A DNA stretch of 64,000 nt, from assembly GCA_035063765.1 (NCBI GenBank), contig JAPSFT010000001.1:7497-71496 (forward strand), given 5' to 3'. The position numbers were made by a program, and so were the translations under genes. The notes under the pieces were generated by a model. That model saw only the letters and a list, made by a program, of their open reading frames with translations. It was not told the origin of the DNA and did not search any database. The DNA is from Deltaproteobacteria bacterium (lineage in GTDB: Bacteria; Myxococcota_A; UBA9160; PR03). Positions 20,614 through 52,339 of the stretch are shown in pieces. Numbering within the stretch: position 1 is the stretch's first letter; every line of letters starts with the position of its first letter.

Positions 20614-20642
20614 TTGACAAACGCCTGTGTTTCTCCATAGCC
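20614..20642 (+). promoter_or_regulatory. sigma-70-like promoter candidate (TTGACA-N17-ATAGCC) upstream of the degenerate bEBP-like gene
   Basis: TTGACA lies at 20614-20619 in the only AT-rich patch of the mutL/20686 intergenic region. Confidence 0.3.
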
Positions 20643-20685
20643 TCCCTCCGGGCACGTCCGCCTGGGGTGTGGGAGGGACCAACCG

Positions 20686-36168: not shown

Positions 36169-37550
36169 CGCTCGAGCCCGGCCAGGAAGGAGCGCGCCCA
36201 GGCGTGGACGTCGTGCCGCGCGACGATCCGGCGCAGCGCCACCATGCGCCGCTCCTGCTCCGCCTCGGGCATCCCGACCGCCTCCACCATCGCGTCCTTG
36301 AGCCCCTCGACGTCGTAGGGGTTCACCTGGGACGCGCCGCGCAGCTCGTGCGCCGCACCCGTCATCTCCGACAGCATCAGCACGCCGCGCTCGTCGACGC
36401 GGGAGGCCACGTACTCCTTCGCGACCAGGTTCATGCCGTCGCGCACCGGTGTGACCAGCATCACGTCGGCGGTCCGGTACAGGGCGACCAGCTCGGGGAG
36501 CGAGAAGCTGCGGTGCAGATAGTGGACGGGGGCGCGGCCCACCTCGCCGAACTCCCCGTTGATCGAGCCCACCAGCCGCTCGACCTCGCTGCGCAGCGCC
36601 TGGTAGTCCTCCACCTCCTCGCGGCTCGGGACGGCCACCTGGACCAGCACGCACTGGCGCGGATCCAGGCGCTTCTCGCGCAGGAGCTCCTCGAAGGCCA
36701 GCAGCCGCACGTCGATGCCCTTCGTGTAGTCGAGCCGGTCGACGCCGAGCAGCACGCGCCGGGGGTGCCCGAGCCGGGCGCGGATCCCGGCGGCCATCCG
36801 GATCACCTCGGGGCTCTCGGCGACGCGCTCGAAGCGGGCCGTGTCGATCGAGATCGGGAAGGCCCCGAAGCGGCTCGCGTGGCCGTGGAGGCGCAGCTCG
36901 TCGCGCGCCCCCTCGGCACCCGCGTAGCGCCGGCACAGCACCGAGAAGTTGCGTGCGCCGACGACGGTCTGGAAGCCTACGACGTCGGCGCCCAGCAGAC
37001 CCTCCAGGATCTGGCGCCGCCACGGAAGCTGCGCGAAGAGCTCCTGGGGTGGGAAGGGGATGTGGAGGAAGAAGCCGATGCGCAGGTCCGGCCGCTGCTC
37101 GCGGATCATGAGGGGCACGAGCTGGAGGTGGTAGTCGTGCACCCAGACGATCGCGCCGGAGGCAGCCTCCTCGGTCGCGACCGCGGCGAAGATCCGGTTC
37201 ACCTCGACGTAGGCGGCCCACCAGGGCCGTTGGTACTGGGGAGGCCGCACGGCGTCGTGGTAGAGCGGCCAGAGCGTGCGATTGGAGAAGCCGTCGTAGT
37301 AGCGCTCGACCTGGCTGCGCGAGAGCGCTACCGGACGGAGCTGGATCCCCTGGCTCTCGAGTCGGCGCGGCGCGCTCGCGCCGCGGCCGGGCCAGCCGAC
37401 CCAGGTGCTCGAACGCTTGCGGAGGACCGGTCCGAGGGCGGAGACCAGGCCGCCCGGGCTCAGGTCCCACTCGTCCTCGCGGCCGCGCTGCGCGGTCACC
37501 GGAAGCCGATTCGAGACCACCACCAGCTCGCTACCCGCTCGTTTCGGCAC
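36165..37550 (-). CDS. otsA: alpha,alpha-trehalose-phosphate synthase (UDP-forming) OtsA
   Basis: 461-aa ORF with a GTG start. GT20 motifs are present: [41 protein letters not shown]. Confidence 0.95.
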
Positions 37551-37646
37551 TCGCCCGGTACGCTCCGTCGCAGACAGCCCGTCGCGAGCCCGAGCCTAGC
37601 GCCATCGAGGCGGACGCAAAGTCGCGCGAGCGCTATCCAACCGCGC

Positions 37647-38666
37647 ATGGCCGAACCCACCCTGCACTACGCCCGCACGCGTGACGGCTGGCGGCTGGCC
37701 CTGCACCACCGCGCGCCGGCGCGCGGCGGCCACGGCGCGGCGCTCCTGCTGTGTCACGGCATGGGCTCGAACCGCTTCAACATGGACGGGCCCGGCCGGG
37801 CGAGCCTCGCGCGCCATCTCCAGGCCCTGGGCTGGGACGTGTGGGTGCTCGAGCTGCGTGGCGCGGGCCTGTCGCGGCGCCGGCTGCGCTTCCCGCGCGC
37901 GAGCTACGGCTGGACCTTCGAAGACTACGTCCAACACGACGTGCCGGCCGCGGTCTCGCTGGTGCGACAGCTCACCGGCCAGGAGCGGCTCCTGTGGGTC
38001 GGCCACTCGCTCGGCGGGATGATCGCGTACGCCGCGATGATGACGCCCCTCGCCGATGCCTTCGCCGGCGCCGTCACGCTCGCGTCGCCGGGCATGACCG
38101 ACATCGGCCACGAGGCGCTCGACCGCTGGATCGCGCTGCGCCGGCTCTTGCGCTTTGCGCCGGCGCGGCTTCCTGCGCGCTGCGCGGCGCGGGCCGGCTC
38201 GCCCCTCGCCGGCGCGATCGCCCGCACCGTACCGACGCTGGTTCGCGACTGGCTCTGGCACCCCGACAACCTCGACCTCGACGTGGTGCGCTTCATGATG
38301 CGACACGGGGTCGAGGACCTGCCCCGCTCGCTGCTGATCGAATTCGCCCGCTGGTACGACGCCAAACGCATGAGCGACCGCTACCGGATCTTCAGCTTCG
38401 GCGACCATCTCGAGCGGGTCCGCGTGCCGATGCTGGTGATCGCCGGCGCCCGGGACCGGCTGACGCCACCCGCAGATCTGGCTCGCCTGGTCGAGCGACT
38501 GGGCTCGAGCGACAAGACCTTCTGGGTGGCAGGGCACGCGTCCGGCCTCGCCCACGAGTACAGCCACGTCGATCTCGTGCTCGGCCGCCACGCGCCCGAC
38601 GAGATCTACCCCGTCGTGGCCGCCTGGCTCGCCGACCACGCACCGGGAGCCGCGGGCCGGTCCTGA
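37647..38666 (+). CDS. alpha/beta-fold hydrolase
   Basis: ATG at 37647 is in frame with ORF 35802..38666. It has the nucleophile elbow GHSLGG, and the late acid/His region reads AGARD ... SHVD. Confidence 0.8.
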   Translation: MAEPTLHYARTRDGWRLALHHRAPARGGHGAALLLCHGMGSNRFNMDGPGRASLARHLQALGWDVWVLELRGAGLSRRRLRFPRASYGWTFEDYVQHDVPAAVSLVRQLTGQERLLWVGHSLGGMIAYAAMMTPLADAFAGAVTLASPGMTDIGHEALDRWIALRRLLRFAPARLPARCAARAGSPLAGAIARTVPTLVRDWLWHPDNLDLDVVRFMMRHGVEDLPRSLLIEFARWYDAKRMSDRYRIFSFGDHLERVRVPMLVIAGARDRLTPPADLARLVERLGSSDKTFWVAGHASGLAHEYSHVDLVLGRHAPDEIYPVVAAWLADHAPGAAGRS

Positions 38667-38669: not shown

Positions 38670-39350
38670 TCAGCCCGGAGCGGTCTGGTGTACCAGCTCG
38701 CGCAGGCGTTCGGGCCGCAGGAGCACGATGCGGCGGTTGTCGCGCCCGATGAGCCCCTCGGCGGAGAGCTCGCGCAGGGTCTGGTTCACGGTCTGGCGGG
38801 TGGCTCCCACCAGCGTCGCGAGCTCGCTCTGGGTGATCGGGATGTCGATCACGCGGTGACCGTTCTCGGTCTGCCCGAAGTCGGCCGCGAGCTCCCCGAG
38901 CATGCGCGCGACGCGCGTGCGCACGTTGCGGAAGACCAGGTCCTCGACCCGGCTCTCGATCTTCTTGAGCCGATCGCCGATCTGGAGGCTCACCTGGAAG
39001 GCGAGCGCGGAGCGAGCCGCGAGCACCTGCTGGAAGTTCTCGCGCGGGATCTTCCAGACCGCCGACGCGCGCACCGCCTCGGCGAAGCTCTCGCGCGGAT
39101 ACTCGCCGAAGGCCGGCAGCTCCCCGAAGACCTCACCCGGCGCCACGTAGCCGAAGCTGGTCTCACCGCCTCCCTCCGAGAGACGATAGATCCGGGCGAG
39201 GCCAGCCTGCAGCAGGTACACCGACTGGGGCTGCCGGGTGGGCGCGAAGATCAGCTCGCCGCGCGCGAAGCGGCGCAGACTGGCACCCCGCTCGAGCTCC
39301 GCCAGCTCGTCGTCTTCCATCCGCGACAGCCACTCGATGGTGCGCATCAT
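38670..39350 (-). CDS. Crp/Fnr-family transcriptional regulator
   Basis: ATG at 39350 is in frame with ORF 38670..39821. It has a cNMP-binding-like barrel (GELIF ... VYLLQAGLARIY ... GEVFGE) and a C-terminal HTH (SELATLVGATRQTVNQTLREL). There is no N-terminal Fnr Cys cluster. Confidence 0.9.
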   Translation of the reverse strand: MMRTIEWLSRMEDDELAELERGASLRRFARGELIFAPTRQPQSVYLLQAGLARIYRLSEGGGETSFGYVAPGEVFGELPAFGEYPRESFAEAVRASAVWKIPRENFQQVLAARSALAFQVSLQIGDRLKKIESRVEDLVFRNVRTRVARMLGELAADFGQTENGHRVIDIPITQSELATLVGATRQTVNQTLRELSAEGLIGRDNRRIVLLRPERLRELVHQTAPG

Positions 39351-40018
39351 CCCCCCGCTCGGGGCGCCCTCGGCGCCCCTTCCTGGGATCCGCCCTCCGG
39401 CCGTTCCCGGGGCGGCGCCTCCGCCCCGGGAGCCTCGCGAGACGCTGCGTCCGGCGACCGCCAGACCCGCTCGCGCAGCGACTCGAACTCGCGGGTCAGG
39501 AAGTCGGCCACGTCGCGGCCCGCACGCTCCACCGAGGAGCGCAGCTCGGTGAGCGTCTCCTCCATCTCCACGCGCCGGCGCTCGCGCTGCCCGCGCCGGC
39601 GTCCGCTCTCGACGGCGCGCCGCGCCGCCTCGCCGAGGTCGTCGAGCTCCCGGCCGAGCTCGACCACGAGGTCGTCGAGGGTGACCAGGCCCGAGAGGCG
39701 GCCGTCGCGCAGCACCACGATGCGGCGCACGCGGGCCGTGCGCATGCGCTCCACCACGACTTCGATCGGGTCGTCGGCGCTCACCGTGACGAGCGGGCGG
39801 CTCATCAGCTCCGCGGCGCACTGCTTCTCGGCGCCAGCGCGGGCGACCACGCGGCAGGCGAGATCGCGATCGGTGACGATGCCCACCGGATGGTCCGCCT
39901 CGTCGACGATCACCACGCTGCCGACCGCGAAGTCGCCCATCAGCCCCGCAAGCTCGGCGGCGCTCGCGTCGAGCGGCGCGGTCGCGACCTCGGTGCGGTA
40001 GTAGTCACGCGTGCGCAT
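39347..40018 (-). CDS. CBS-pair protein with charged coiled-coil C-terminal extension (CBS-2)
   Basis: 223-aa ORF with two CBS motifs (VGIVTDRDL, GLVTLDDLV) followed by an Arg/Glu-rich helical tail. ATGA overlap with the crp start. Confidence 0.85.
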   Translation of the reverse strand: MRTRDYYRTEVATAPLDASAAELAGLMGDFAVGSVVIVDEADHPVGIVTDRDLACRVVARAGAEKQCAAELMSRPLVTVSADDPIEVVVERMRTARVRRIVVLRDGRLSGLVTLDDLVVELGRELDDLGEAARRAVESGRRRGQRERRRVEMEETLTELRSSVERAGRDVADFLTREFESLRERVWRSPDAASREAPGAEAPPRERPEGGSQEGAPRAPRAGG

Positions 40019-40021
40019 GGG

Positions 40022-40483
40022 TCACTTCCCTTCCGGCGCCGGACCGGGTCTTCCGGGGGACCGCTCCACGGGGGCCTGGGCCGCGGCCGCCGCGGCGACC
40101 CCCGCGAGCTCGCTCGCCACCAGACGCAGGATGTCGTCGGAGCTCAGGATGCCGACCAGCTCCTCGTCCGCGTTCACGATCGGGATCCGCCGTACGGACC
40201 GGCGCCGCATCAGGGCCGCGGCGGCGCGGAGCGACGACGTCTCGTGCATCACCAGGGGGTCGGTGCCGAACGCATCGACCACCCGCGTCGTGTCGGGGTC
40301 GAGTCCGTCGCGCAGCACGCGTAGCGCGAGGTCGCGATCGGTGACGATCGCGCGCGGGTGCGACCCGAGCAGCCCCACGAGGCACCCGACTCCCTCCTCC
40401 GCCATGCGCACGGCGGCGGCGCGCAGCGTGTCGCGCGCGTCGATCGTGCGGACGTCGCGCTGGCAGTAGTCGGCGATCGCCAC
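40022..40483 (-). CDS. CBS-pair protein (CBS-1)
   Basis: GTG at 40483 has GAAGGAGG 4 nt upstream and is in frame with ORF 40022..40603. CBS motifs are AIVTDRDLALRV and VGILSSDDILRL. It ends 3 nt before CBS-2. Confidence 0.85.
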   Translation of the reverse strand: MAIADYCQRDVRTIDARDTLRAAAVRMAEEGVGCLVGLLGSHPRAIVTDRDLALRVLRDGLDPDTTRVVDAFGTDPLVMHETSSLRAAAALMRRRSVRRIPIVNADEELVGILSSDDILRLVASELAGVAAAAAAQAPVERSPGRPGPAPEGK

Positions 40484-40524
40484 GGCCCCTCCTTCGCGAG
40501 CTCCCCATCGACGACCCGGGCTGG

Positions 40525-40540
40525 TGCAACCGCCATGCCC
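40525..40540 (-). promoter_or_regulatory. sigma-54-type (-24/-12) promoter candidate P1 for the CBS-1/CBS-2/crp operon
   Basis: The minus strand reads GGGCATGGCGGTTGCA, against the consensus TGGCAC-N5-TTGCW, with exact GG-N10-GC spacing. The predicted +1 is near 40514, 31 nt upstream of GTG 40483, with AGGAGG in between. Confidence 0.6.
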
Positions 40541-40666
40541 GTCTGCCCGTGAGCCCCGCGACGCCCTGGGTCGGCGGTTGTGGCGTTCTGGCGCATAGGA
40601 CATTGTCGGCGGGGCGACCTGTCGCGCTGGCCCTGGCGAGCCGGGTCACCGGCTCCCTCCCGCTCC

Positions 40667-40683
40667 GGGCATGGCTCGTGCAA
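40667..40683 (+). promoter_or_regulatory. sigma-54-type promoter candidate P2 for CBS-3
   Basis: The plus strand reads GGGCATGGCTCGTGCAA with exact GG-N10-GC spacing. It shares the GGGCATGGC core with P1. The predicted +1 is near 40693, 30 nt upstream of ATG 40723. Confidence 0.55.
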
Positions 40684-40722
40684 GCTCGCGCACGCTGGAG
40701 CCGACCGGGAGCCGCCGAGCCG

Positions 40723-41160
40723 ATGCCCCTCTACGACCGTCCCGTCTCGACCATCATGCGCCGCGAGTTTGCGAGTCTGCACCCGGACGACCGCCTGGAC
40801 CTCGCGGAGCAGATGATGAAGGTCGGGCGCGTGCGCCACCTGCCGGTGCTGGGCCCGGACGGCCACGTGGTCGGCATCGTCTCGAGCCGCGACCTGCTCG
40901 AAGCCTCGCTCAGCAGCGTGCTCGATCTCGATCCCGCTTCGCGGCGCGGGTTCCTCCGCTCGGTGGCGGTCGCCGATGTGATGCGGCCGGAGGTCGAGAC
41001 GGTCGCGGAGAGCACGTCGCTGCTCGGCGCGGCGAGCCGGATGATCCGCCACAGGATCGGCTGCCTGCCGATCGTGGGCCCCGACGGTGTCATGACCGGA
41101 CTCGTCACCGAGACCGATCTGCTGATCGCGGCCTATCTCCCGGAGCCCGCTCCGCGCTAG
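40723..41160 (+). CDS. CBS-pair protein (CBS-3)
   Basis: ATG at 40723 is in frame with ORF 40549..41160. CBS motifs are VGIVSSRDLL and GLVTETDLL. Confidence 0.85.
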   Translation: MPLYDRPVSTIMRREFASLHPDDRLDLAEQMMKVGRVRHLPVLGPDGHVVGIVSSRDLLEASLSSVLDLDPASRRGFLRSVAVADVMRPEVETVAESTSLLGAASRMIRHRIGCLPIVGPDGVMTGLVTETDLLIAAYLPEPAPR

Positions 41161-41182
41161 CTAGGCGCGCGGCGCGCGAGCG

Positions 41183-41590
41183 TCAGCGATCGAGCGCGAG
41201 GCGCACGAAGTCGCCCTCGGTCAGGATGCCCACGAGCCTGCCCTTCGCGACCACCGGCAGGCAGCCGAGCTTGCGCTCCAGCATGATGCGTGCCGCCTCG
41301 ACCAACGCGGTGTCGGGCTCGACCGTCACCGGATCGTTGGTCATCACCTCCTTGACGAGCAACATGCCCATCACCTTCTGCTGCGCGTGCGCGCCGTAGC
41401 CGAGCGCACGCGCCAGCGCGCCCCGGAACAGGTCGCGCTGCGAGAGCACGCCGACCACCTCCCCCGTCGCCTCGTCGAGCACCGGCGTATGGCGGATGCG
41501 CCCGAGCCGCATCAGGTCGTCCGCGATCACGAGCTGGTCGTTGCGCAGGACGGTCGCCACCTCGGTGCTCATCACGTCACGGACCTTCAT
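41183..41590 (-). CDS. CBS-pair protein (CBS-4)
   Basis: 135-aa ORF with the strong SD GGAGGGAG. The sequence reads MKVRDVMSTEVATV ... VGVLSQRDLF ... VGILTEGDFV. Confidence 0.9.
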   Translation of the reverse strand: MKVRDVMSTEVATVLRNDQLVIADDLMRLGRIRHTPVLDEATGEVVGVLSQRDLFRGALARALGYGAHAQQKVMGMLLVKEVMTNDPVTVEPDTALVEAARIMLERKLGCLPVVAKGRLVGILTEGDFVRLALDR

Positions 41591-41661
41591 CGAACTCCCT
41601 CCTCGTGCGCGCCGGACAACCCCTTGCTGCGCCTGGAGTGCAGGAGGATACTGGCTCGCTG

Positions 41662-42939
41662 GTGAAGGAAGGGCTCGACGACCGGCTCGACTACCTGGGG
41701 CTGACCGAGGACGATCGGCAGCTGCTCGCCCGCATCGGGCCGCTGCTCGAGCGCCACGCCGACCGCTTCGTCGCCGCCTTCTACCGCCACCTGCTCTCCT
41801 TCGACGAGACCCGGCGCCTGCTCGCCGACCCCGCGGTGACGGAACGCCTGCTGGGCAAGCAACGCGAGTACCTCCTGAGCCTCGCGACCCCCGGGCTCGA
41901 CGCGACCTACCTCGAGGAACGGATCCGGATCGGTGCCGTGCACGCCCAGGTCGGACTCGGCCCGCGCTACTACCTCGGTGCCTACGCGCTCTACTTCTCG
42001 CTGCTGGCGCCGGTGATCGCCTCCGATTGCGAGGGCGACACGGAGCTCGTCCAGCGCACCTTGAGTGCCCTCGTCAAGGTGCTGTTGCTCGACGCCGAGC
42101 TCGCGATGGAGTCCTACGTGGAGCGCCACGGGGAAGGGCTCACCCACCTGAACCGGGAGCTCGCCGCCGTGAGCCGCTCGCTCTCGCGCGAGGTCGAGGT
42201 CCAGGAGCAGGAGCTCCGGCAGACCCAGAAGCGCGCACGCGCCGCCGAGGACCTGGCGTCGGTCGCGACGCTCGTGGCGGGGCTCGCCCACGAGATCGGT
42301 ACGCCGATGGGGGTGATCCGTGGCCATGCGGAGGCGCTCGGCGGCGCGGTCCAGGGCGAACGGGCGCAATGGCGGCTGCGCACGATCCTGGAGCAGATCG
42401 ACCGCATCTCGAGCATCATCCGCGCGCTGCTCGACGTCGCGCGGCCACGCGAGCGCGTCCTGGTGCCGATCGAGCTCCCACAGGTGCTGGACAACGCGCT
42501 CGCCTTCCTGTCCGAGCGGATGCGGCGCCACGGGATCGAGATCGAGCGCCGCTACGACCGGGTGCCGGTGATCCACGGGGATCCCGACAAGCTCCAGCAG
42601 CTGTTCCTGAACCTGTTCCTGAACGCGGCCGACGCGATGCCCGACGGTGGACACCTTATCGTGTCGGTCGCGGCCTCGGATGGCCAGGCGGTCGGGATCC
42701 GGATCGCCGACGACGGCGTCGGCATCCCCGCCGCCGACCTCGAGAACCTGTTCACGCCCTTCTTCACGACCAAGCCGGCAGGCCGCGGCAGCGGACTCGG
42801 GCTGGTGGTCGCCCAGGGCATCGTCGCCGATCACGGCGGGCGCATCGAGGTGCTCAGCGCCCCCGGCCGCGGCACCGAGTTCGTGATCGAGCTGCCGCTG
42901 CGCGCTCAAACCGGGCCGGAGGGGCGGATCGGATCGTAG
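41662..42939 (+). CDS. globin-coupled sensor histidine kinase (protoglobin sensor + HisKA + HATPase_c)
   Basis: The N-terminal globin-coupled-sensor pattern reads LDYLGLTEDDRQLLARIGPLLERHADRFVAAFYRHL ... RIGAVHAQVGLGPRYYLGAY, giving a distal Tyr and a proximal His context. The H-box is LAHEIGTP, and N/G boxes are present (NLFLNAADAM, DDGVGI, GSGLGL). I prefer GTG 41662 as the start; the ORF-track start is GTG 41605. Confidence 0.85.
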   Translation: MKEGLDDRLDYLGLTEDDRQLLARIGPLLERHADRFVAAFYRHLLSFDETRRLLADPAVTERLLGKQREYLLSLATPGLDATYLEERIRIGAVHAQVGLGPRYYLGAYALYFSLLAPVIASDCEGDTELVQRTLSALVKVLLLDAELAMESYVERHGEGLTHLNRELAAVSRSLSREVEVQEQELRQTQKRARAAEDLASVATLVAGLAHEIGTPMGVIRGHAEALGGAVQGERAQWRLRTILEQIDRISSIIRALLDVARPRERVLVPIELPQVLDNALAFLSERMRRHGIEIERRYDRVPVIHGDPDKLQQLFLNLFLNAADAMPDGGHLIVSVAASDGQAVGIRIADDGVGIPAADLENLFTPFFTTKPAGRGSGLGLVVAQGIVADHGGRIEVLSAPGRGTEFVIELPLRAQTGPEGRIGS

Positions 42940-43334
42940 GCGCGGCGCAGGAGGTCGCTCTCGGTGAGCAGGCCGACCAGCCGCGGGCCGTCCGGGCCGG
43001 GCTCGACGATCGGCAGGCAGCCCGTGCGCGAGCGGGCGATCCGCGCCGCCGCCTCGTCGACGCTCATCGTGGTCCCGCCCGTCTCGGTGTCCGGCGACAT
43101 CACCTCTTCGACGCGCGTGCAGCGGCCGGCAAGGGCGGCCTCGACGAGGACCGCGAACGAGAGCACGCCGCGCAGGACCCCGTCGGCCACCACCGGGAGC
43201 TGGCGCAGGCGCGCCACCCGCATCATCTGGAGCGTCTCCGCGATCGAGGCACCCGGTGCGACGGAGAGCCAATGCCGCCGCATCACCCGAGCCACTTCGG
43301 CCCCGAACGTCCCCGTGCTTCCCTCGAACCCCAT
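42906..43334 (-). CDS. CBS-pair protein (CBS-5)
   Basis: 142-aa ORF with the motifs RGVLSFAVL and VGLLTESDLL. It overlaps the 3' end of the convergent kinase gene by 34 nt. Confidence 0.8.
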   Translation of the reverse strand: MGFEGSTGTFGAEVARVMRRHWLSVAPGASIAETLQMMRVARLRQLPVVADGVLRGVLSFAVLVEAALAGRCTRVEEVMSPDTETGGTTMSVDEAAARIARSRTGCLPIVEPGPDGPRLVGLLTESDLLRRAYDPIRPSGPV

Positions 43335-43346
43335 GCCGCCCGCAGG

Positions 43347-43362
43347 TGCAGACGGCGTGCCA
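43347..43362 (-). promoter_or_regulatory. sigma-54-type promoter candidate P3 for CBS-5
   Basis: The minus strand reads TGGCACGCCGTCTGCA with exact GG-N10-GC spacing. The predicted +1 is near 43336, only about 2 nt upstream of ATG 43334. Confidence 0.5.
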
Positions 43363-43472
43363 GCACCTCCCGGCGTCCCGGAGGCGGCGCGAGATCCAGA
43401 TCCGGGGCCTGATGCCTCGCTTCGTGTGCCAGGAGGGGTGCGATGCTGAGGCTGCGCGTCGTGAGCTGATTT

Positions 43473-43507
43473 GTCACATTCGGGTCATTTTGCCCTATAC
43501 GTGTGAC
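43473..43507. promoter_or_regulatory. inverted repeat GTCACA-N23-TGTGAC in the AT-richest patch between P3 and P4 (possible activator or Crp-type site)
   Basis: The sequence is gatTTGTCACAttcgggtcattttgccctatacgTGTGACctc. The arms are exact 6-mers. Confidence 0.3.
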
Positions 43508-43535
43508 CTCATCTGCAGCGCCCGTGCGTCGCGGG

Positions 43536-43551
43536 TGGCACGTAACGTGCT
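43536..43551 (+). promoter_or_regulatory. sigma-54-type promoter candidate P4 for the bEBP/USP/APH-P-loop/CBS-6 operon
   Basis: The plus strand reads TGGCACGTAACGTGCT with exact GG-N10-GC spacing. The predicted +1 is near 43562, about 4 nt upstream of ATG 43566. Confidence 0.55.
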
Positions 43552-43565
43552 CCTGGGATACCCCG

Positions 43566-44953
<1,388 letters not shown>

Positions 44954-44957
<4 letters not shown>

Positions 44958-45865
44958 GCCGCTTCCGGACGATCCTCGTCCCGACCGACTTCTCGGCCCA
45001 CGCGCACGCCGCGATCGAGCTGGCCCGCACGCTGGCTCACACAGGCGGCGGGGCGGTCCACCTGCTGCACGCCTACGAGGTGCCGCTCGGCACGATCTCG
45101 CCCTACGGCGTCGCGCTGCCCGACGGCCTGCTGGCGCAGGTGCGCGACGCAGCCGCGCGCCGGCTCGAGAAGGCGGCCCACGGCTTCGTCGAGGCGAAGG
45201 TCTCCTGCGAGACCCACGTCGCACACGGACCTGCCGCGGACGCGATCACCGAGGCGGCACAGCGCCTGCACGCCGACCTGGTCGTGATGGGCACGCGCGG
45301 GCTGAGCGGATGGAAGCACGCCCTGCTCGGCAGCGTGGCCGAACGCACCGTACGCAGCTCGCCCTGCCCCGTGCTGACCTTCCGTACGCCCGACCGCGCC
45401 GAAGGAGGATCCGTGGGCCACTTCCGCAAGCTCCTCGTGCCCCTCGACTTCTCGAAGCACTCCGACGCCGCCCTCGCGCTCGCGGTCGAGCTCGCGAGCG
45501 AGCACGCCGCCGAGGTCCACCTGCTCCATGCCTACGAGCTGCCCGCCGCCGTGACGATGGCCTACGGCGTCGCGATCCCCCAGGCGGTCTGGGACGGGGT
45601 CCAGGAAGCCGCCCTCGCGCGCCTCGAGGAGGGACGCAAGCGCCTCGAGGCGGCCGGCATCCGCGGCACCACGCACCTCGTGACGGGGCCCGCCGCAGAT
45701 GCCATCGCGCAAGCTGCCGAGAGCGTGGCTGCGGACCTGATCGTGATGGGCACCCGCGGCCTCACGGGGCTCAAGCACGTGCTGCTCGGCAGCGTCGCGG
45801 AGCGCACGATCCGCACCGCGCCCTGTCCCGTCCTCACGCTCAAGTCGGACGCGCAGGACGCCTGA
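44954..45865 (+). CDS. tandem universal stress protein (two UspA domains)
   Basis: GTG at 44954 overlaps the upstream stop (GTGA). There are two repeats of ILVPTDFS ... LLHAYE ... DLVVMGTRGLSG..H.LLGSVAERT.R...CPVLT. Confidence 0.9.
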
Positions 45866-45877
45866 CGGAGAGGCCGC

Positions 45878-47521
45878 ATGCCTCCCCCTGTCGAGCCGCT
45901 CCCCGCCGGGCTCGCTGCGGCGCTCGCGCGGCCGGCGGCACACCCCTTCGACGCGAGCGCTGCGGCGGGCGTCGAGCACGTCCAGACCCACCTCTCGCAC
46001 GTGTACCTGACGGGAGCGCGGGCCTGGAAGCTCCGCAAGGCCGCCGCGCTCGGCTTCGTCGACTTCGCGACGCGCGCGAAGCGCAATCGCGACTGCGCCC
46101 GCGAGGTCCGGCTCAACCGCCGCCTCGCACGCGACGTGTACCTGGGCGTCGCCCCGGTCGAGGCCGATCCCGCCGGCGGCTTCCGGATCGGTGCGCTCGC
46201 CCCGGACGCGGACGAGGAGACCCTGGCGCGCGACCCGCACGAACACGTGGTCGCGATGCGCCGGCTGCCGGCGGGGCACGACGCGCTCGCGCTCCTCGAG
46301 CGCGGCGCGCTCCACGCGCGCCACCTCGACGCGGTCGCCGAGCGGCTCGCCCGCTTCCACGCCGAGCACGGCCTCGGCGTCCCCGCGCCCTTCACACCCG
46401 ACGCCTGGCGCGCCCGGATCGAGGGCCCCGTGCGCGACAACCTGCGCCTGCTCGAGCCGGCCGCGGGCCGGCTCTTCCCGCGCTCGACCTGGCGCCAGGT
46501 CGAGCAGCGGACGAGCGCCTTCGCCGACGCCCACGCCGGCCGCTTCGAGGCGCGCCGCCGCGAGGGCCGCGCCGTCGACGGCCACGGCGACGTGCACCTC
46601 CAGCACGTCTGGTTCGAGCCGGGCCGCGCCGAGCCGCTGCTCGTCGACTGCATCGAGTTCCGCGACGACCTGCGTCGGATCGACGCCGCCTCCGAGGTGG
46701 CCTTCCTCGCGATGGACCTGCGCTACCGGCGCCGGGCGCAGCTCGCGGCGCGCTTCCTGCGCCGCTACGCGGCCGCCCGCGACGACTTCGGCCTCTACGG
46801 CGTGCTCGACTACTTCGTGAGCTACCGGGCCGCGGTGCGCGCGAAGGTGGCGGCGCTCGCCGCCGACGACGGCGCGATCGAGCCCGGCCAGCGCGCCGCC
46901 GCGGCGGCGAGCGCGCGCCGCCACCTCGCGCTCGCAGCGCGCGCCCTGGCGCCGCCGCGCGCGGGCGGGCTGGTGCTGGTCGGGGGCCTCGTCGGCAGCG
47001 GCAAGAGCAGCGTCGCCGAGACGATGGCCGACACCGCCGGAGGCGTCGTCGTCGCGTCGGACCGGGTGCGCAAGGCGCTCGCGGGGCTCGCTCCCACCGC
47101 GCGCGGCGGAGCCGCACGGGGCCTCTACGACAGCGCTGCGAAGGAGCGCGTCTACCAGGCGCTGCTCGAACGGGCGGAGCCGATCACGGCCTCGGGCCGG
47201 ATCGCGATCCTCGACGCCACCTACGCCCTCGAGCGCCACCGGGCGGCCGCGCTCGCCTGGGCGCGCGGGCGTGGGATCGAGCCGGTGCTCGTCGAGGCGC
47301 GCTGCCCGCACGAGACCACCCTCGCGCGCCTTGCGGCGCGCGCCGCCGCCGGCCGGGATCCCTCCGATGCCGGCCCGGAGCTGCTCGCCTGGAGCGAGCG
47401 CCACTACCAGCCGCCGCGCGCGGGCGTCATCGTCATCGAGACCCATCAGCCGGATTGGCGGACCCGGGCGCGTTCCCTCGCCCGCCGTCTGCACCCGACC
47501 CGGGAGCCAGCGGAGGAGTGA
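45878..47521 (+). CDS. aminoglycoside-phosphotransferase-like kinase domain fused to P-loop (AAA_33-type) kinase domain
   Basis: 547-aa ORF (SD GGAGAGG). The N-terminal APH-like catalytic loop is HGDVHLQHVW ... DCIEF. The C-terminal Walker A is GGLVGSGKSS. Confidence 0.8.
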   Translation: MPPPVEPLPAGLAAALARPAAHPFDASAAAGVEHVQTHLSHVYLTGARAWKLRKAAALGFVDFATRAKRNRDCAREVRLNRRLARDVYLGVAPVEADPAGGFRIGALAPDADEETLARDPHEHVVAMRRLPAGHDALALLERGALHARHLDAVAERLARFHAEHGLGVPAPFTPDAWRARIEGPVRDNLRLLEPAAGRLFPRSTWRQVEQRTSAFADAHAGRFEARRREGRAVDGHGDVHLQHVWFEPGRAEPLLVDCIEFRDDLRRIDAASEVAFLAMDLRYRRRAQLAARFLRRYAAARDDFGLYGVLDYFVSYRAAVRAKVAALAADDGAIEPGQRAAAAASARRHLALAARALAPPRAGGLVLVGGLVGSGKSSVAETMADTAGGVVVASDRVRKALAGLAPTARGGAARGLYDSAAKERVYQALLERAEPITASGRIAILDATYALERHRAAALAWARGRGIEPVLVEARCPHETTLARLAARAAAGRDPSDAGPELLAWSERHYQPPRAGVIVIETHQPDWRTRARSLARRLHPTREPAEE

Positions 47522-47970
47522 TGCCCGAGCGATCCGTCGAGAGCGTGATGCAGCGCGACGTCGTGACCCTGCGCCCCGAGAGCAGCGCGCGCGAGGCCGA
47601 GCGCCTGCTCGCCACGCACCGCATCGGCGGCGCGCCGGTGGTGGACGAGGCCGGGCGCGTGGTGGGCGTCCTCTCCCAGAGCGACCTCGGCCGGCTCGAG
47701 GCCGAGCGCCCGAGCACAGCGGCTGCGGGCGCCTTCTTCAGCGACGTCGACGACTACCGCGACATCGGGGCGCTGCCCGCCGCGGCGAGCGTGGTGCCGG
47801 TGGCGCGCTTGATGAGCCGGGAGGTGCTCTCGGTCTCACCCGCGGCGACGCTCGCCGAGGCGGCCCGGCGCATGCGCGAGCGGCGCGTGCACCGGCTCCT
47901 GGTCGTCGAGAACGGGGCGCTGCGTGGCGTGGTCAGCGCCTTCGACCTGCTGGTCGCGATCACCGGGTGA
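47521..47970 (+). CDS. CBS-pair protein (CBS-6)
   Basis: ATG at 47521 overlaps the upstream TGA by 1 nt (GTGATG) and is in frame with ORF 45310..47970. CBS motifs are VGVLSQSDL and RGVVSAFDLL. Confidence 0.85.
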   Translation: MPERSVESVMQRDVVTLRPESSAREAERLLATHRIGGAPVVDEAGRVVGVLSQSDLGRLEAERPSTAAAGAFFSDVDDYRDIGALPAAASVVPVARLMSREVLSVSPAATLAEAARRMRERRVHRLLVVENGALRGVVSAFDLLVAITG

Positions 47971-48037
47971 TGGCCGGCCGGGCGAGCGCTCCCCCCGCCG
48001 CTCATCCCTCGCGCAGCGAACGGTAGGCGCGCAGGTG

Positions 48038-49149
48038 GCGGAGCGCGCCGGCCGGATCGCCGAGCCGGTCGTGGAGCCGCGCGTCGTGGCGGAGGTGCGC
48101 TACGCCGAGGGCACCCGCGACGGGCGCCTGCGCCAGCCCGTCCTGCTGCGCCTGCGCGAGGACAAGAGGCCCGCCGGGATCGATGCGCCGCCCGGCCCGC
48201 GAGGCGGGCGCCCGAAGGTCCCGCGAAGCCGAAGGAGAAGAGCACGAAACCGAAGCCCGGACACGAGCTTGTCCTCACGAACCTCGACAAGACCTTCTGG
48301 CCGGACGAGGGCCTCACCAAGGGCGACCTGCTCGGCTACTACCGCGCGATCGCCCCCTGGCTCCTGCCCTACCTGCGCGACCGCCCGCTCACGCTCGTCC
48401 GGCACCCGGACGGGATCACGGGCAAGGCGTTCTTCCAGAAGGACGCGCCCGCCTCGGCGCCCGCGTGGGTGCGGCGCGAGCGGCTCTGGAGCGAGCACGG
48501 CCGTCGCGAGATCCGCTTCTTCGTCGTGGACGACGTGGACGCGCTGCTCTACGTCGCGAACCTCGGCGCCATCGCGCTCCACGTGCAGGCGAGCCGGGTC
48601 GCCGACCTCGCGCATCCCGACTGGTGCATCCTCGACCTCGACCCCAAGGGCGCACCCTTCCGCGACGTCGTCACGATCGCACGTACCCTCCATGGGCTCA
48701 CCGGCGAGATCGGGCTCCCGGCCTTCCCGAAGACCAGCGGCTCGGCGGGTCTGCACGTGCTCGTGCCCCTCGGAGGGCGCCTCACCTTCGCGAAGGCGCG
48801 CACGCTCGCGGAGCTCCTCGCGCGCGAGGTGGTGGCGCGCCACCCCGGGATCGCGACGCTCGCGCGGCGCGTGGCTGCTCGCGGCGGGCGCGTCTACGTC
48901 GACACCGGCCAGAACGGGCACGGGAAGCTCCTCGTGGCGCCCTTCTCGGTGCGCGCGCTGCCCGGGGCGCCGGTCTCGATGCCGCTGCGCTGGAGCGAGC
49001 TCGGCCCGCGCCTCGACCCGCGGCGCTTCACGATCCGCAACGCGCTCGCGCGCCTGCGCCGGCTCGGCGAGGATCCCCTCGCGCCGGTCCGGGGCCCCGC
49101 GCCCGACCTGCTCGGGGCGCTCGAACGGCTGGCCCGGCGGGGCCGCTGA
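48038..49149 (+). pseudogene. ligD: LigD remnant: last ~40 codons of the ATP-dependent ligase (OB) domain, a frameshift, then an apparently intact primase-polymerase (LigD-Pol) domain lacking any ATG/GTG/TTG start
   Basis: One frame reads AEPVVEPRVVAEVRYAEGTRDGRLRQPVLLRLREDKRP, the ligase-domain C-terminus. The next frame reads PAKPKEKSTKPKPGHELVLTNLDKTFWPDEG ... CILDLDP ... SGSAGLHVLVP ... VYVDTGQNGHGKLLVAPFSVR. That frame has no canonical start between 47971 and GTG 48469. Confidence 0.6.
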
Positions 49150-49200: not shown

Positions 49201-50088
49201 TTGCGTCGTCTGTCTCTCCTCGCGATCGCGCTCGCCGCCCGGGTCTGCGTGGCGCACGCCGCGCCGCCGCCGCCGCTCGGCGTGGTCGCCACCATCGAGC
49301 CGATCGCGATGATCGCGCGCGAGCTCGCCGGCGCGCACTTCACCGTCTCGACCCTCGTGCCGCCCGGCGCGAGCCCCCACACCTTCGATCCGCGCCCCGG
49401 CGACGTCGTGCGGGTGGCACGAGCCGCGCTCCTGATCGCGGTCGGGGGCGGCCTCGACGGCTGGACGCAGCGCCTGCTCGGCGCGAGCGGGCGCCCGGTC
49501 GAGACGCTCGTGCTGCTCGAGCTGCCGGACCTCGCGCCGCTGCCCGCGGCGGGCGCGGCGTCGCGCGGGTCCGATCCCCACGTCTGGCTCGACCCGCTCC
49601 GGGTGCGCGACGTGCTCGCGCCCGCCATCGCCGCCCGCCTGGAACACCTCGATCCCGCGCACGCCGCCGACACGGCGGCGCGGCTCGCCGATCTCCAGGC
49701 GCGCCTCACGAGCCTCGATCGCGACCTGCGCGCCGTGCTCGCGGGCCCGCGCCGCGCCTACGTGGCCTTCCACGCCGCCTGGCGCTACTTCGGGGCGCGC
49801 TACGGGCTGGAGGAGATCGGCGTGATCGAGGAGGCCCCCGGCGAGGAGCCGGGCCCGCGCGAGCTGGCGGAGCTGGTCGCGGCGGCGCGCGCCGTTGGCG
49901 TGCGCGCGATCCTGATCGAGCCGCAGCTCGACCCGCGCGTGGCGCGCACGCTGGCCGCGGAGTTCGGCGCCACCACCATACTGGTCGATCCCAACGGCGA
50001 CCCCACGGATCCTGAACGAGCCGGCTACGAAGGGCTCCTGCGCTGGAACGCCCGGGCCTTCGCGCGAGCGCTGGGCGGGAGCTCATGA
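49201..50088 (+). CDS. znuA: zinc ABC transporter substrate-binding protein ZnuA-like
   Basis: The start is TTG and a signal peptide is present. Cluster-9 SBP motifs are GASPHTFDPRPGD, SDPHVWLDP and HAAWRYF. Confidence 0.88.
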   Translation: MRRLSLLAIALAARVCVAHAAPPPPLGVVATIEPIAMIARELAGAHFTVSTLVPPGASPHTFDPRPGDVVRVARAALLIAVGGGLDGWTQRLLGASGRPVETLVLLELPDLAPLPAAGAASRGSDPHVWLDPLRVRDVLAPAIAARLEHLDPAHAADTAARLADLQARLTSLDRDLRAVLAGPRRAYVAFHAAWRYFGARYGLEEIGVIEEAPGEEPGPRELAELVAAARAVGVRAILIEPQLDPRVARTLAAEFGATTILVDPNGDPTDPERAGYEGLLRWNARAFARALGGSS

Positions 50089-50831
50089 GCGAGGTCGCGA
50101 TCCGCTTCGAGCACGTCGACGTGCTCCGCGACGGCCGGCTCGTGCTCGAGGACGTGAGCTTCGCGGTGGGCACGGGTCAGTTCGTCGGCGTGGTGGGCCC
50201 GAACGGCGCCGGCAAGACGACGCTCCTGCGCGCGCTCCTCGGCCTCCTGCCGGTGGCGCGCGGGCGCATCGAGGTGCTGGGGCGGCCGCCGGGCGCGGCG
50301 CGCGGCGAGATCGGCTACGTGCCCCAGCGACACATGATCGCCCCGGGCTTCCCGGCGACCGTCCGCGACGTGGTGGCGATGGGCCGGCGCGGGCGCCTGC
50401 GCGCGGGCGACCGCGAGGCGGTGGAGCGCGCCCTCGCGCGCGTGGACCTGCTCGAGCGCGCGGGCCGGCCGGTGGGCCGGCTCTCGGGCGGCGAGCAGCG
50501 GCGCGTGATGCTCGCCCAGGCGCTCTGCGCGGGCGCGCGCCTGCTGGTCCTCGACGAGCCCACGATCGGCCTCGACCTGCCGGCCGAGCAGGCCTTCTAC
50601 GCGCTGCTGCGCGGCCTCGACACCACCGTGCTCGCGGTCTCCCACGACCTCCTCGCGCTCGCCTCGGTGGCCGACGAGCTGATCTGCATCAACCGCACGA
50701 TGCACGTGCACGGCAACCCGGACGACGTCGTCCACAGCCACGCGCTGCGCGCCGCCTACCACTGCGAGTTCGACTTCCTGGCGGGCGAGCTCGCGCACCA
50801 CTCGAAGCCCTCCGCGGACCCGCGCTCCTGA
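50085..50831 (+). CDS. znuC: zinc ABC transporter ATP-binding protein ZnuC-like
   Basis: [20 protein letters not shown] and LLVLDEP are present. ATGA overlap with znuA. Confidence 0.9.
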
Positions 50832-51625
50832 TGCTGGAGCTCGCCTTCATGCAGCGTGCGCTGCTGGCCGCCGCGGCGATCGGCCTGGTGTGCGGCGCCC
50901 TCGGCTTCTTCGTCGTGCTGCGCCGGCTGGCCTTCATCGGGGTCGGGATCTCGCACTCGGCGATCGGCGGCGTCGCGCTCGCCGTCGTGCTCGGCTGGCC
51001 GCCGCTCGGGACGGCGGCGGTCTTCGCCGTGGCTGTGGCGCTCGCGATCGCGCGCCTCGCGCGCAGCGGGCGCCTGTCCGAGGACGCCGTGATCGGGATC
51101 TTCTTCTCGGGCTCGCTGGCGCTCGGGGTGGTGCTCTTCAGCCTGCGCCGGGGCTACCAGCAGGACCTCTTCGGCTACCTGTTCGGCAACGTGCTCGCGA
51201 TCACGCCGGGCGAGCTCGCGCTGCTTGCGGCCGCCGGCGCGGCGGTGCTGGCGGCGCTCGCGATCAGCTTCCGCCCGCTGCTCTTCCTGGCCTTCGACGA
51301 GGAGGTGGCGCGCGCCTACGGCCACCCGGTGGCCGCGCTCGAGACGGGGCTGCTGGTGCTCCTGGCCGTGACCGTGGTGATCGGGGTGCGGCTGGTCGGC
51401 GTGATCCTGGTCGAGGCCCTGCTCGTGGTCCCCGCCGCCACCGCGACCCTCTGGGCCACCCACTACCGGGCCCAGCTCGCCCTCGCGATGGCCCTCGGGG
51501 CGAGCGCCGGCGTCCTGGGCCTCGCCGCCGCCTACGCCTTCGACCTGGCGGCCGGCGGCACGATCGTGCTGGTCTCGGTGGCGGGCTTCTTCGTGTCCCT
51601 CGTGCTCCGGCCCCGGCCGGGATGA
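50831..51625 (+). CDS. znuB: zinc ABC transporter permease ZnuB-like
   Basis: 264-aa multi-TM ABC-3 family permease. Its start overlaps the znuC stop by 1 nt. Confidence 0.9.
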
Positions 51626-51765
51626 CCCCTCCCGGTCCCGGGACCACGACCCGGCCCCGGGATCGCGTGCCGGGGCCCTGGGCCGGCGCGATCGTTTTGC
51701 TATCTACAGGCGCCCCGGCGGGACCCGTCGCGCCGGAGCCTGCTCTTCACGAGGGACGATCGCCG

Positions 51766-52071
51766 ATGGCCAAGACCTCCCAGGTGCACCGGGACCTGCG
51801 CCGCAAGGCGCTGATCCAGAAGCACGCCGGCAAGCGCGCCGAGCTGCGCCAGAAGCTCCAGGACCCGGAGGTCTCGATCGAGGAGAAGCTGGCCGCCCAG
51901 CTCGCCTTCTCGAAGCTGCCGCGCAACTCGTGCCCCACGCGCAAGAAGAATCGCTGCGCGATCACCGGCCGCGCGCGCGCCTACTACAAGAAGTTCGGGA
52001 TCTCCCGCATCGCGCTGCGCGAGCTCGCGCTGGCGGGGCAGCTCCCGGGCGTGCGCAAGTCGAGCTGGTAG
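51766..52071 (+). CDS. rpsN: 30S ribosomal protein S14, long cysteine-poor (C-minus) form, located outside any spc-type operon
   Basis: ATG at 51766 is in frame with ORF 50890..52071. The sequence reads [28 protein letters not shown] ... [40 protein letters not shown]. The protein is 101 aa and has no CxxC pairs. Confidence 0.92.
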
Positions 52072-52084
52072 GAGCGAGCGCGCC

Positions 52085-52330
52085 GTGAAGCCCGGCATCC
52101 ATCCCGACTACCACAAGGTCATCTTCGTCGACAGCGCGAGCGGGACGGAGTGGACGACGCGCTCGACGATGGGCTCGAGCGAGACGCGCGAGGTGGACGG
52201 CGAGCAGGTCCCGGTGATCCGGCTCGAGGTCTCGGCCGTGAGCCACCCGTTCTGGACCGGCCAGCTCCGCGAGGCCGCGCGCGGCGGCAAGGTCGACGAG
52301 TTCCGGCGCCGCTACGGCAAGAAGAAGTAG
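52085..52330 (+). CDS. rpmE2: 50S ribosomal protein L31 type B (no cysteines, zinc-independent form)
   Basis: The sequence reads MKPGIHPDYHKVIFVDSASGTEW ... SHPFWTGQ. The CxxC positions of zinc-binding L31 are replaced (VDSAS). Confidence 0.92.
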   Translation: MKPGIHPDYHKVIFVDSASGTEWTTRSTMGSSETREVDGEQVPVIRLEVSAVSHPFWTGQLREAARGGKVDEFRRRYGKKK

Positions 52331-52339
52331 GAGACCCCG

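Follow-up and report, generated by a model that had tools for sequence, protein, structure and literature searches.

Gene content of the cluster

The DNA analyzed here is a 64,000-nucleotide stretch (hereafter, the window) of contig JAPSFT010000001.1, from the assembly GCA_035063765.1 of a Deltaproteobacteria bacterium placed by GTDB in the Myxococcota_A. Our subject is the gene cluster at positions 38670–47970, in which a globin-coupled histidine kinase and an NtrC-type sigma-54 activator lie among genes for six CBS-pair proteins, a universal stress protein (USP), a two-domain kinase and a Crp/Fnr-family regulator. The G+C content of the window is 70–80%, which makes raw lists of open reading frames useless, and genes were called from the codon-position GC (frame analysis of GC at third codon positions) together with translations and Pfam matches, and cross-checked against the gene calls on identical metagenome contigs. 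The original prediction, made from the letters of the DNA, had counted 13 consecutive genes. The consecutive cluster is real, but our calls give 11 genes, which is also the number to which the prediction's own list adds up. Its domain assignments all recurred at strong Pfam E-values, with the APH-like half of the two-domain kinase recognizable at the fold level only.

The kinase gene (41638–42939, + strand) encodes a globin-coupled histidine kinase (GcHK) of 433 aa that matches Pfam HisKA (1.6e-12) and HATPase_c (4.5e-28), and whose N-terminal domain, predicted to be a protoglobin, indeed matches Protoglobin at 7.6e-35 over 152 of the 158 model positions. Its sensor-globin matches in the PDB are Geobacter GCS, HemAT, the Vibrio RsbR globin and AfGcHK. 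In alignments with HemAT and AfGcHK, the predicted haem-ligand residues Tyr49 (in AFYRH) and His102 (in VHAQVG) fall on the FY and HxxxGL motifs of those proteins, and both are invariant among 35 homologues; from what is established for HemAT and AfGcHK, we take them to be the distal B10 and the proximal F8 residue, respectively. All catalytic boxes of a histidine kinase are present, namely AHEIGTP (217, H), NLFLNA (325, N), DDGVGI (358, G1), FTTK (376, F) and GSGLGL (384, G2), and the core is of the AtoS/ZraS type (NCBIfam AtoS 4.8e-59 and ZraS 5e-53; PDB ZraS 9e-40). Homologues of the kinase number in the thousands; the sensor-globin subfamily is narrow, with 33 clusters at E-values up to 1e-30 within a superfamily of 3452.

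The activator gene (43566–44957, + strand) encodes an NtrC-type sigma-54 enhancer-binding response regulator of 463 aa with matches to Pfam Response_reg (3.3e-30), Sigma54_activat (5e-72), AAA_lid_14 and HTH_8 (1.3e-10), and to the AtoC, NtrC and ZraR models of NCBIfam. It had been called intact, and the receiver (REC), AAA+ and Fis-type helix–turn–helix domains are all there, along with the acidic pocket DDD at 11, KPF at 105, Walker A at 173, GAFTGA at 220 and the Walker B motif DEIG at 244. In the 64-kb window, no further REC or kinase-core domain was found beyond this pair.

Three genes follow the activator on the same strand. The tandem USP (44954–45865, 303 aa; Pfam Usp 1.9e-66, in two stretches) begins within the stop of the activator gene (GTGA), and is followed by the two-domain kinase fusion (45878–47521, 547 aa) and by the CBS-pair protein CBS_N (47521–47970, 149 aa; Pfam CBS 1.9e-31), whose ATG overlaps the preceding stop. 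The original prediction described the 547-aa protein as a fusion of an APH-like kinase and a P-loop kinase. The C-terminal half is a P-loop kinase by Pfam (AAA_33, 1.6e-24), but the N-terminal 345 residues gave no match to Pfam, NCBIfam or PDB sequence profiles. We also examined the AlphaFold model of the fusion (pLDDT 92.2, pTM 0.91) with Foldseek against the PDB. The N-terminal domain retrieved choline/ethanolamine kinases and APH(3')-Ia/APH(2'')-IVa (E-values 1e-6 to 6e-5, TMt 0.5–0.57), and the C-terminal domain retrieved gluconokinase and APS kinase (TMt 0.69). The motifs HGDxHLxH and DCIEF are invariant in an alignment of 37 homologues. At the fold level only, the modeled N-terminal half thus appears to be an APH/choline-kinase-like bilobal domain with catalytic-loop and metal-binding Asp motifs. 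Homologues of the fusion are abundant and carry the JGI name ‘aminoglycoside phosphotransferase family enzyme/predicted kinase’; a few of them carry PF01636.

The other five CBS-pair genes flank the kinase gene. CBS_J (42906–43334, − strand, 142 aa; Pfam CBS 4.2e-19) is convergent with the kinase gene and overlaps its 3' end, and CBS_H (41183–41590, − strand, 135 aa; 3e-27) is divergent from it. CBS_G (40723–41160, + strand, 145 aa; 1.6e-26) is followed leftwards by CBS_F (40022–40483, − strand, 153 aa, also in the metagenome call; 2.9e-18), which has a GTG start after AAGGAGG, and by CBS_E (39347–40018, − strand, 223 aa; 6.5e-23, in two stretches), in which about 100 aa form a charged C-terminal tail and for which the metagenome gene call agrees. 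Each of the six proteins contains two CBS stretches (E-values 3e-18 to 2e-31), and they have diverged to 29–52% identity in local alignments. We rejected the possibility that they are orthologues of Hrp1 or Sri; the similarity is that of CBS domains in general, and this also applies to the top PDB match of CBS_H, the archaeal CBS hibernation factor 9znf. According to the Sri paper, most bacterial matches fall outside the Sri clades (PMC13454478).

The leftmost gene (38670–39350, − strand, 226 aa; Pfam cNMP_binding 1.6e-18 and HTH_Crp_2 1.5e-18) encodes the Crp/Fnr-family regulator, and 4 nt are shared between its start and the stop of CBS_E. The 226-aa protein has no cysteines, so the N-terminal [4Fe-4S] cysteine cluster of the FNR type is absent. 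It matches the NCBIfam CRP and FixK models below their cut-offs (FixK 2.7e-16), and by sequence it resembles FixK rather than FNR.

Predicted sigma-54 promoters and a shared putative activator site

A scan of one genome per species yielded 80 related loci with full-length matches to the kinase (51–72% identity; the closest species-representative match is 72% identical). They are labeled mostly as metagenome-assembled genomes (MAGs) of Myxococcota/Deltaproteobacteria, with some Spirochaetales, Gammaproteobacteria and Opitutales. The proteins of the window were placed on these loci by tblastn, and the 34 loci with at least 8 kb on either side are referred to as well-flanked. Three relatives, L005, L085 and L086, retain the order of the whole cluster, with kinases 72–80% identical.

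Upstream of the NtrC genes of these loci, the sigma-54 element TGGCAC-N5-xTGCT (up to two mismatches) occurs 10–22 nt before the start codon in 59 of 62 loci, compared with 1 of 286 control coding windows. When the upstream regions were aligned on this element, a 17-bp palindrome, TGTGGCA-N3-TGCCACA, was found, a putative upstream activator site (UAS). Most often there are two copies separated by about 20 bp, their centres lying 46–48 and 65–68 nt upstream of the T of the −24 box (about 60 loci). Position weight matrices (PWMs) were built for both elements, the UAS matrix from the upstream regions of NtrC genes only and the sigma-54 matrix likewise from NtrC-gene promoters. Because consensus-only searches were at chance level across the window, we relied on these matrices together with position and conservation.

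The original prediction proposed four sigma-54 sites with exact GG-N10-GC spacing. All four exist, each just upstream of a gene and one of them before the operon of the activator, but the spacing on which they were chosen is uninformative at 75% GC; their significance comes from the extended −24/−12 match, their position and their conservation across genomes. The strongest is P4, TGGCACGTAACGTGCT (43536–43551, + strand), which precedes the activator's own operon, predicted to end with CBS_N, and scores 20.1 bits. On the other side of the same gap, P3, TGGCACGCCGTCTGCA (43347–43362, − strand; 18.0 bits), is directed toward CBS_J, which it is predicted to drive. Between the two lies a tandem UAS (43462–43497) made up of TGAGCTGATTTGTCACA (43462–43478) and CGGGTCATTTTGCCCTA (43481–43497), with centres 66 and 47 nt from P4 and 108 and 127 nt from P3, on the upstream side of both. 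In the second divergent gap, P1, GGGCATGGCGGTTGCA (40525–40540, − strand), is directed toward a predicted operon headed by CBS_F, continuing with CBS_E and ending with Crp, and P2, GGGCATGGCTCGTGCA (40667–40682, + strand; 8.5 bits), toward CBS_G. A predicted activator-binding site common to both, UAS-a, TGTGGCGTTCTGGCGCA (40579–40595, centre 40587), is 80 nt from P2 and 47 nt from P1, the latter being the distance preferred in the family. A second and tentative site, UAS-b, CGGGGCGACCTGTCGCG (40610–40626, centre 40618), lies 31 bp from UAS-a; its distance from P2 is 49 nt and from P1 78 nt. P3 and P4 each have one mismatch to the consensus TGGCAC-N5-TTGC, P1 has two and P2 has three. When the UAS matrix was run over the whole window, the three highest scores were at 43470 (18.8 bits), 43489 (14.5 bits) and 40587 (14.2 bits), all of them in the two divergent gaps.

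P1 to P4 are all conserved in L005, L085 and L086. In the alignment of the window with L005, the promoters and UAS sites stand out as the conserved islands of the gaps, and L085 and L086 carry them too. The counterpart of P1 in L005 is CGGCATAGCCGTTGCA; that of P2 in L005 and L085 is CGGCACGGCTCATGCA, which scores 13.1 bits, and P2 is also present in L086. UAS-a is identical at 16 of 17 bases in L005 and L085 and is present in L086, and UAS-b forms a conserved block in L005 at the spacing classes of the family.

Across positions 41500–41900, which span the gap between CBS_H and the kinase gene, neither a sigma-54 element of at least 3 bits nor a UAS of at least 6 bits was found, and the same was true of L005, L085 and L086. 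Nine of the 11 genes are therefore placed in four predicted sigma-54 units. In other words, the original statement that the kinase and activator are wired to the whole set is supported for these nine genes, but not for the kinase gene and CBS_H. Scans of the 38–49 kb region for sigma-70 promoters and terminators found none, including none for the kinase gene or CBS_H, and an Rfam scan of the whole window found no RNA family.

Three further matches were judged to be chance or probably so. The sigma-54-like CGGCACGCATCATGCT (41280–41295, − strand; 12.5 bits) lies inside CBS_H, points toward the 3' end of CBS_G and has no UAS upstream; a sigma-54-like match at 49415 (+ strand) lies inside a coding region just past a LigD remnant; and a UAS-like match at 52380 lies inside an L28 gene.

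We also noted some features of the transcripts and of the P4 region. The predicted P3 start (~43336) and the CBS_J ATG (43334), and likewise the predicted P4 start (~43562) and the NtrC start (43566), would leave leaders of only about 2–4 nt. As the same 10–22 nt spacing from element to start codon is found for the NtrC genes of about 59 loci, this suggests that transcripts from promoters of the P3/P4 type are leaderless. P1 and P2, with predicted starts at about 40514 and 40693, have predicted leaders of about 30 nt with Shine–Dalgarno sequences. Two blocks near P4, TGAGGCTGCGCGTCGTGAGC (43447–43466, abutting the distal UAS) and CAGCGCCCGTGCG (43516–43528, just 5' of P4), are perfectly kept between the window and L005 and fit neither the UAS nor the sigma-54 model, and in many loci a stretch containing AGCGC lies 15–30 nt upstream of the −24 box. 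This stretch may be a site for another factor.

Conservation of the cluster in related loci

The system recurs in about 60 other uncultured Myxococcota genomes. In 58 of 67 testable loci, the NtrC gene lies downstream of the kinase gene and in the same orientation; a reverse-strand CBS gene stands between the two in 21 of 58 loci, nearly always with a sigma-54+UAS promoter, and a USP gene directly follows the NtrC gene in 25 of 51. Among the 34 well-flanked loci, CBS genes were found in 25, USP genes in 22, the AAA_33 fusion in 10, Crp in 2 and the hydrolase (see below) in 1, whereas otsA, otsB and LigD were found in none. CBS_G is the CBS type most widely kept, with orthologues 50–67% identical that often stand behind sigma-54+UAS promoters, and the position of CBS_N is unchanged in L005, L085 and L086. 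The pair and its CBS/USP/AAA_33 cargo are thus syntenic in many relatives. Crp is not a conserved part of the cluster; in L007 it has a sigma-54+UAS promoter of its own.

Since the UAS model was trained on NtrC-gene upstream regions only, the other promoters of the related loci provide an independent test of it. Of 237 non-training sigma-54-like sites, 57 (24%) are preceded, at a distance of 38–140 nt, by a UAS scoring 10 bits or more, compared with 2% by chance, a 12-fold enrichment, and the spacing of these UAS has a period of 10.4–10.5 bp (Rayleigh p ~6e-6; control p 0.25). The genes behind such sigma-54+UAS pairs comprise about 25 CBS genes, 5 USP genes, 4 hemerythrin genes and 5 genes for ferritin-like di-iron proteins, and one each for the AAA_33 fusion, Crp, CcoN (cbb3 oxidase), WS/DGAT and HPF. 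The CBS_H orthologue in L058 does carry a sigma-54+UAS promoter. Of the computational findings that the original prediction had named as fatal to it, none was made: the sensor domain is a protoglobin by profile, the motifs are kept in orthologous loci with a shared upstream site, and the gene set has syntenic relatives.

The original prediction also placed an otsA/otsB-GH15 operon just upstream. The operon is present, as otsA (GT20, 3e-146) and an otsB-TREH_N-GH15 fusion, with an alpha/beta hydrolase gene between it and Crp. As a companion of the module, however, it failed: the gap between otsA and the hydrolase gene (37500–37700) contains no sigma-54 or UAS element, and the operon is syntenic in no relative, being absent from 34 of 34 well-flanked loci. 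We accordingly rejected otsA/otsB as members of the regulon. In L085 and L086, WS/DGAT and [NiFe]-hydrogenase genes occupy the corresponding place.

Two further differences among the loci were observed. The USP is a single tandem open reading frame in the window, and two genes of 148–150 aa, 14–27 nt apart, in L085 (13275–14207) and L086 (13296–14203), which points to a recent fusion or split. Beside CBS_H, L085 (8306–9393) and L086 (8293–9377) have a gene for a ferritin-like di-iron protein and a 97-aa gene. The di-iron protein has two ExxH motifs and weak matches to Phenol_Hydrox and Ald_deCOase; its gene also lies beside the kinase gene in L012, L014, L015, L071 and L043, has its own sigma-54+UAS promoter in several loci and is frequently accompanied by the 97-aa partner. 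It is missing from the cluster in the window, where a 38%-identical homologue is encoded at 10551–11246 (− strand).

Evidence for and against a gas-sensing regulon

Given the observed domain content, synteny, and conservation, spacing and helical phasing of the promoters and UAS, we think it reasonably probable that the cluster forms a gas-sensing regulon of the two-component, sigma-54-dependent kind, located on the chromosome of an uncultured Myxococcota lineage. Copies of the bare GG-N10-GC motif number 2105 in the window and 12 in the two divergent gaps, and the consensus TGGCAC-N5-TTGCW with up to two mismatches was found 15 times against 11.1 expected window-wide, which is chance level. 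Several observations weigh against the gas-sensing reading. The UAS consensus TGTGNCANNNTGNCACA was found 6 times against 6.2 expected in the window and is also at chance level, so that for the UAS only the matrix ranking and the positions are telling. P1 scores 4.3 bits on the matrix trained on NtrC promoters and UAS-b just 2.5 bits, and the case for both depends on their being kept in a few close relatives. Neither the kinase gene nor CBS_H has the sigma-54/UAS signature. No rpoN gene was seen in the 64-kb window, outside which it was not sought, and all of the relatives are MAG contigs. A second sigma-54 activator gene (20641–21723, + strand; Sigma54_activat 1e-27, AAA_lid_14, no receiver), followed by a carbon-nitrogen hydrolase gene, is present in the window, and from this we conclude that sigma-54 is used elsewhere in the genome.

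The chance-level frequency of the bare and loose motifs and the poor scores of P1 and UAS-b would also fit a narrower explanation, in which the pair regulates only its own operon and the CBS genes are unrelated neighbours with fortuitous motif matches in GC-rich DNA. This explanation has very little credibility in our view. P3, which faces a CBS gene, scores 18 bits and is conserved; a UAS is kept in the CBS_F/CBS_G gap of three relatives; the enrichment and helical phasing of the UAS were found at non-training sites; and the roughly 25 CBS genes of other loci show the same pairing of a sigma-54 element with a UAS.

Comparison with known systems

According to the original prediction, this set of genes had not been described as a unit. 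The closest known system is NmpRSTU of Myxococcus xanthus, in which a protoglobin kinase feeds an NtrC-like sigma-54 activator that controls, among others, a CBS gene, a USP, a hemerythrin and the cbb3 oxidase (PMC6211767, PMC11841059). The claim of novelty must therefore be narrowed, but the present system is a distinct and simpler variant. One could go further and suppose that the cluster is simply the orthologue of the NmpRSTU system of M. xanthus and Anaeromyxobacter, and hence already described. Both come from the myxobacterial lineage and have a protoglobin kinase on top as the master sensor and an NtrC-like sigma-54 activator at the bottom; in both, the activator operon is under autoregulation (predicted here) through a sigma-54 promoter that has two inverted-repeat sites in tandem; both have CBS, USP, hemerythrin and cbb3 targets; and in Anaeromyxobacter Fw109-5, too, a CBS-pair gene stands beside the kinase gene. 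Nevertheless, we consider orthology highly improbable, for the following reasons. The system described here is a two-gene pair; neither the window nor the related loci contain a hybrid kinase like NmpS or a double-receiver phospho-sink like NmpT, and the Pfam-annotated gene calls for L085 and L086 (21 kb each) show no further REC or kinase domain of the NmpS/NmpT kind. Moreover, NmpU does not itself phosphorylate NmpR. The kinase here has an AtoS/ZraS-like core, and its globin is distant from that of AfGcHK, the NmpU homologue (phmmer against 5ohe, E 5e-9, 39.8 bits), being closer to the non-kinase sensors Geobacter GCS and HemAT (2w31, 1or4). The conserved site also differs: the NmpR site, GCGCA-N5-TGCGC, was found at chance level in the window (20 against 21 expected, with up to one mismatch) and in neither of the two gaps (40484–40722 and 43335–43565). 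Finally, the cargo has many more CBS pairs and also includes the APH-fold/P-loop kinase, and the sign of the response may differ because the inverter step is missing. The cluster is thus not a categorically new system; it is a conserved minimal variant, itself uncharacterized, of the protoglobin/sigma-54 oxygen-response circuit.

AfGcHK of Anaeromyxobacter sp. Fw109-5 is likewise a soluble globin-coupled kinase with a distal Tyr, a proximal His and a CBS-pair gene beside it. Its partner, however, is a double-receiver protein homologous to NmpT and not an NtrC-type activator.

In the FixL–FixJ–FixK system of rhizobia, the sensor is a PAS-haem protein, FixJ is a LuxR-type sigma-70 activator and FixK is a member of the Crp/Fnr family without an Fe-S cluster. 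The likeness proposed here is that a haem sensor kinase acts via a response regulator on a Crp/Fnr gene, with a cbb3 oxidase downstream (here in the relatives), whereas the present system has a globin sensor and a sigma-54 enhancer-binding protein, and its Crp is restricted to a small sub-lineage (2 of 34 loci). AtoS–AtoC and ZraS–ZraR of the Enterobacteria are the profiles that best match the kinase core and the activator as a whole, and they share the logic of a kinase acting directly on a sigma-54 enhancer-binding protein. The scores are nevertheless far below the equivalog cut-offs, the sensors are periplasmic or PAS domains there but a cytoplasmic haem globin here, and the regulons are unrelated.

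The original prediction had compared the cargo with the mycobacterial DosR regulon, whose list includes the CBS pair Rv2626c, Rv2004c, Rv2005c and the diacylglycerol acyltransferase Rv3130c (PMC5309233). The resemblance holds at the level of domain families: in both cases, by prediction here, a haem sensor kinase controls a USP-rich regulon that includes tandem USPs such as Rv2623 of M. tuberculosis (2jax/3cis), with which the USP of the window aligns over its full length (E 7e-13), and WS/DGAT and HPF are among the targets or neighbours in relatives of the cluster. It does not extend to the regulators, since none of the DosR, DosS or DosT type is present; DosS and DosT are GAF-haem sensors that act through a NarL/LuxR-type regulator on sigma-70 promoters with Dev boxes, whereas the types here are protoglobin and NtrC. 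Nor is it specific for the CBS proteins, as the match of CBS_H to Rv2626c (E 4e-7) ranks behind many other CBS proteins, and the trehalose genes lie outside the conserved module.

Flanking DNA

The surrounding genes are of a housekeeping nature (MetH, Asd, MutL and znuABC). At the 3' edge of the cluster, comparison with L086 showed that positions 48008–49107 consist of remnants: the last 25 codons of a MerR-TPR gene (48008–48082, − strand), LigD residues 487–530 (48071–48202) and, after a frameshift, LigD residues 533–830 (48214–49107), which correspond to the Prim-Pol domain. The genes for Ku and a cytochrome c, present in L086, are gone, as are the portions of LigD for its phosphoesterase and ligase. 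The stretch seems to be a deletion scar, left by a lineage that lost a non-homologous end-joining locus. Beyond it, positions 49201–52621 contain znuA, an ABC ATPase gene, an ABC-3 permease gene and then an L28 gene; in the same place, L085 has znuA, the ATPase, the permease, S14, L31 and L28. This looks like a zinc-limitation (Zur-type) locus.

Proposed circuit, sign of the response and possible role

In the circuit that we propose, the soluble kinase, with haem on His102 and Tyr49 on the distal side, would sense O2 or another diatomic gas and would phosphorylate the adjacent NtrC-type protein directly, with no relay like that of NmpS and NmpT. Direct phosphotransfer is supported by the near-universal adjacency of the two genes, by their AtoS/ZraS-like and AtoC/NtrC/ZraR-like types, and by the absence of another receiver or kinase in the 64 kb. 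The activator would then bind the tandem 17-bp palindromes about 47–90 nt upstream of the −24/−12 promoters, on a fixed face of the helix. Opening of P4 would yield the NtrC–USP–APH/P-loop kinase–CBS_N transcript, and hence positive autoregulation, while P3 would serve CBS_J, P2 CBS_G, and P1 CBS_F, CBS_E and Crp. Because the Crp protein lacks cysteine and resembles the FixK and CRP models, a second tier like that of FixLJ–FixK is suggested for this sub-lineage, and Crp may relay the signal to it in the fashion of FixK. The kinase gene and CBS_H would be expressed outside the circuit.

If the circuit is organized in this way, then it introduces the question of its sign. One study of AfGcHK describes its autophosphorylation as enhanced by O2 binding (PMC8697598), and M. 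xanthus needs the inverter NmpS for hypoxic induction (PMC6211767). A pair acting directly, with no inverter in the 64-kb window, could therefore be induced by O2 rather than by hypoxia, and this too counts against our reading. Accordingly, we considered the same circuit with the opposite sign, in which the kinase is active when O2-bound and the regulon would let an organism that is mostly anaerobic or microaerophilic respond to an oxic shift or to oxygen stress, and would not be a programme of hypoxia or quiescence; hemerythrins, di-iron proteins, USPs and CBS proteins would then buffer O2. The hemerythrin and ferritin-like di-iron targets suit the handling of O2, and [NiFe]-hydrogenase genes adjoin the cluster in L085 and L086. 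However, the regulon of the family also includes the cbb3 oxidase, WS/DGAT, HPF and USPs, which elsewhere are typically induced by hypoxia or dormancy, as in the NmpR and DosR regulons, and the similarity of the globin to that of AfGcHK is weak, so that the polarity of the response to the ligand need not carry over. We regard the opposite sign as unlikely, although it deserves serious consideration.

For the gas-sensing regulon as we read it, the output consists mostly of CBS pairs and USPs that would bind adenine nucleotides and of the dual kinase, to which the relatives add hemerythrin, di-iron proteins, the cbb3 oxidase, WS/DGAT and HPF. This looks like a set for adaptation to oxygen or energy limitation. 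The quiescence regulon of the original prediction goes further than this, and as a programme of hypoxia it is an inference. A more speculative extension, which we consider improbable, is that the sigma-54 battery brings about a haem-gated metabolic shutdown, in which the CBS pairs would sense adenylates and inhibit ribosomes or key enzymes; the system, with a globin kinase and sigma-54 in control, would then be a convergent counterpart of DosR. An analogy for this shutdown is offered by Dri, Sri and HibA, the CBS hibernation factors of archaea (PMC13454478).

These results define, from sequence alone, a complete and testable circuit, with its sensor, regulator, binding site, promoters and targets, for a kinase family that so far comes only from uncultured Myxococcota. 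They also indicate that the idea behind the Nmp system exists in a minimal two-component version without an inverter, which raises the question of signalling polarity. Stand-alone CBS pairs and the Rv2004c-like dual kinase, two types of protein whose functions are poorly understood, are nominated as core effectors of the response to oxygen or energy. Furthermore, with the models of the 17-bp site and of the −24/−12 element, the whole regulon can be read out wherever a complete genome from this lineage is available.

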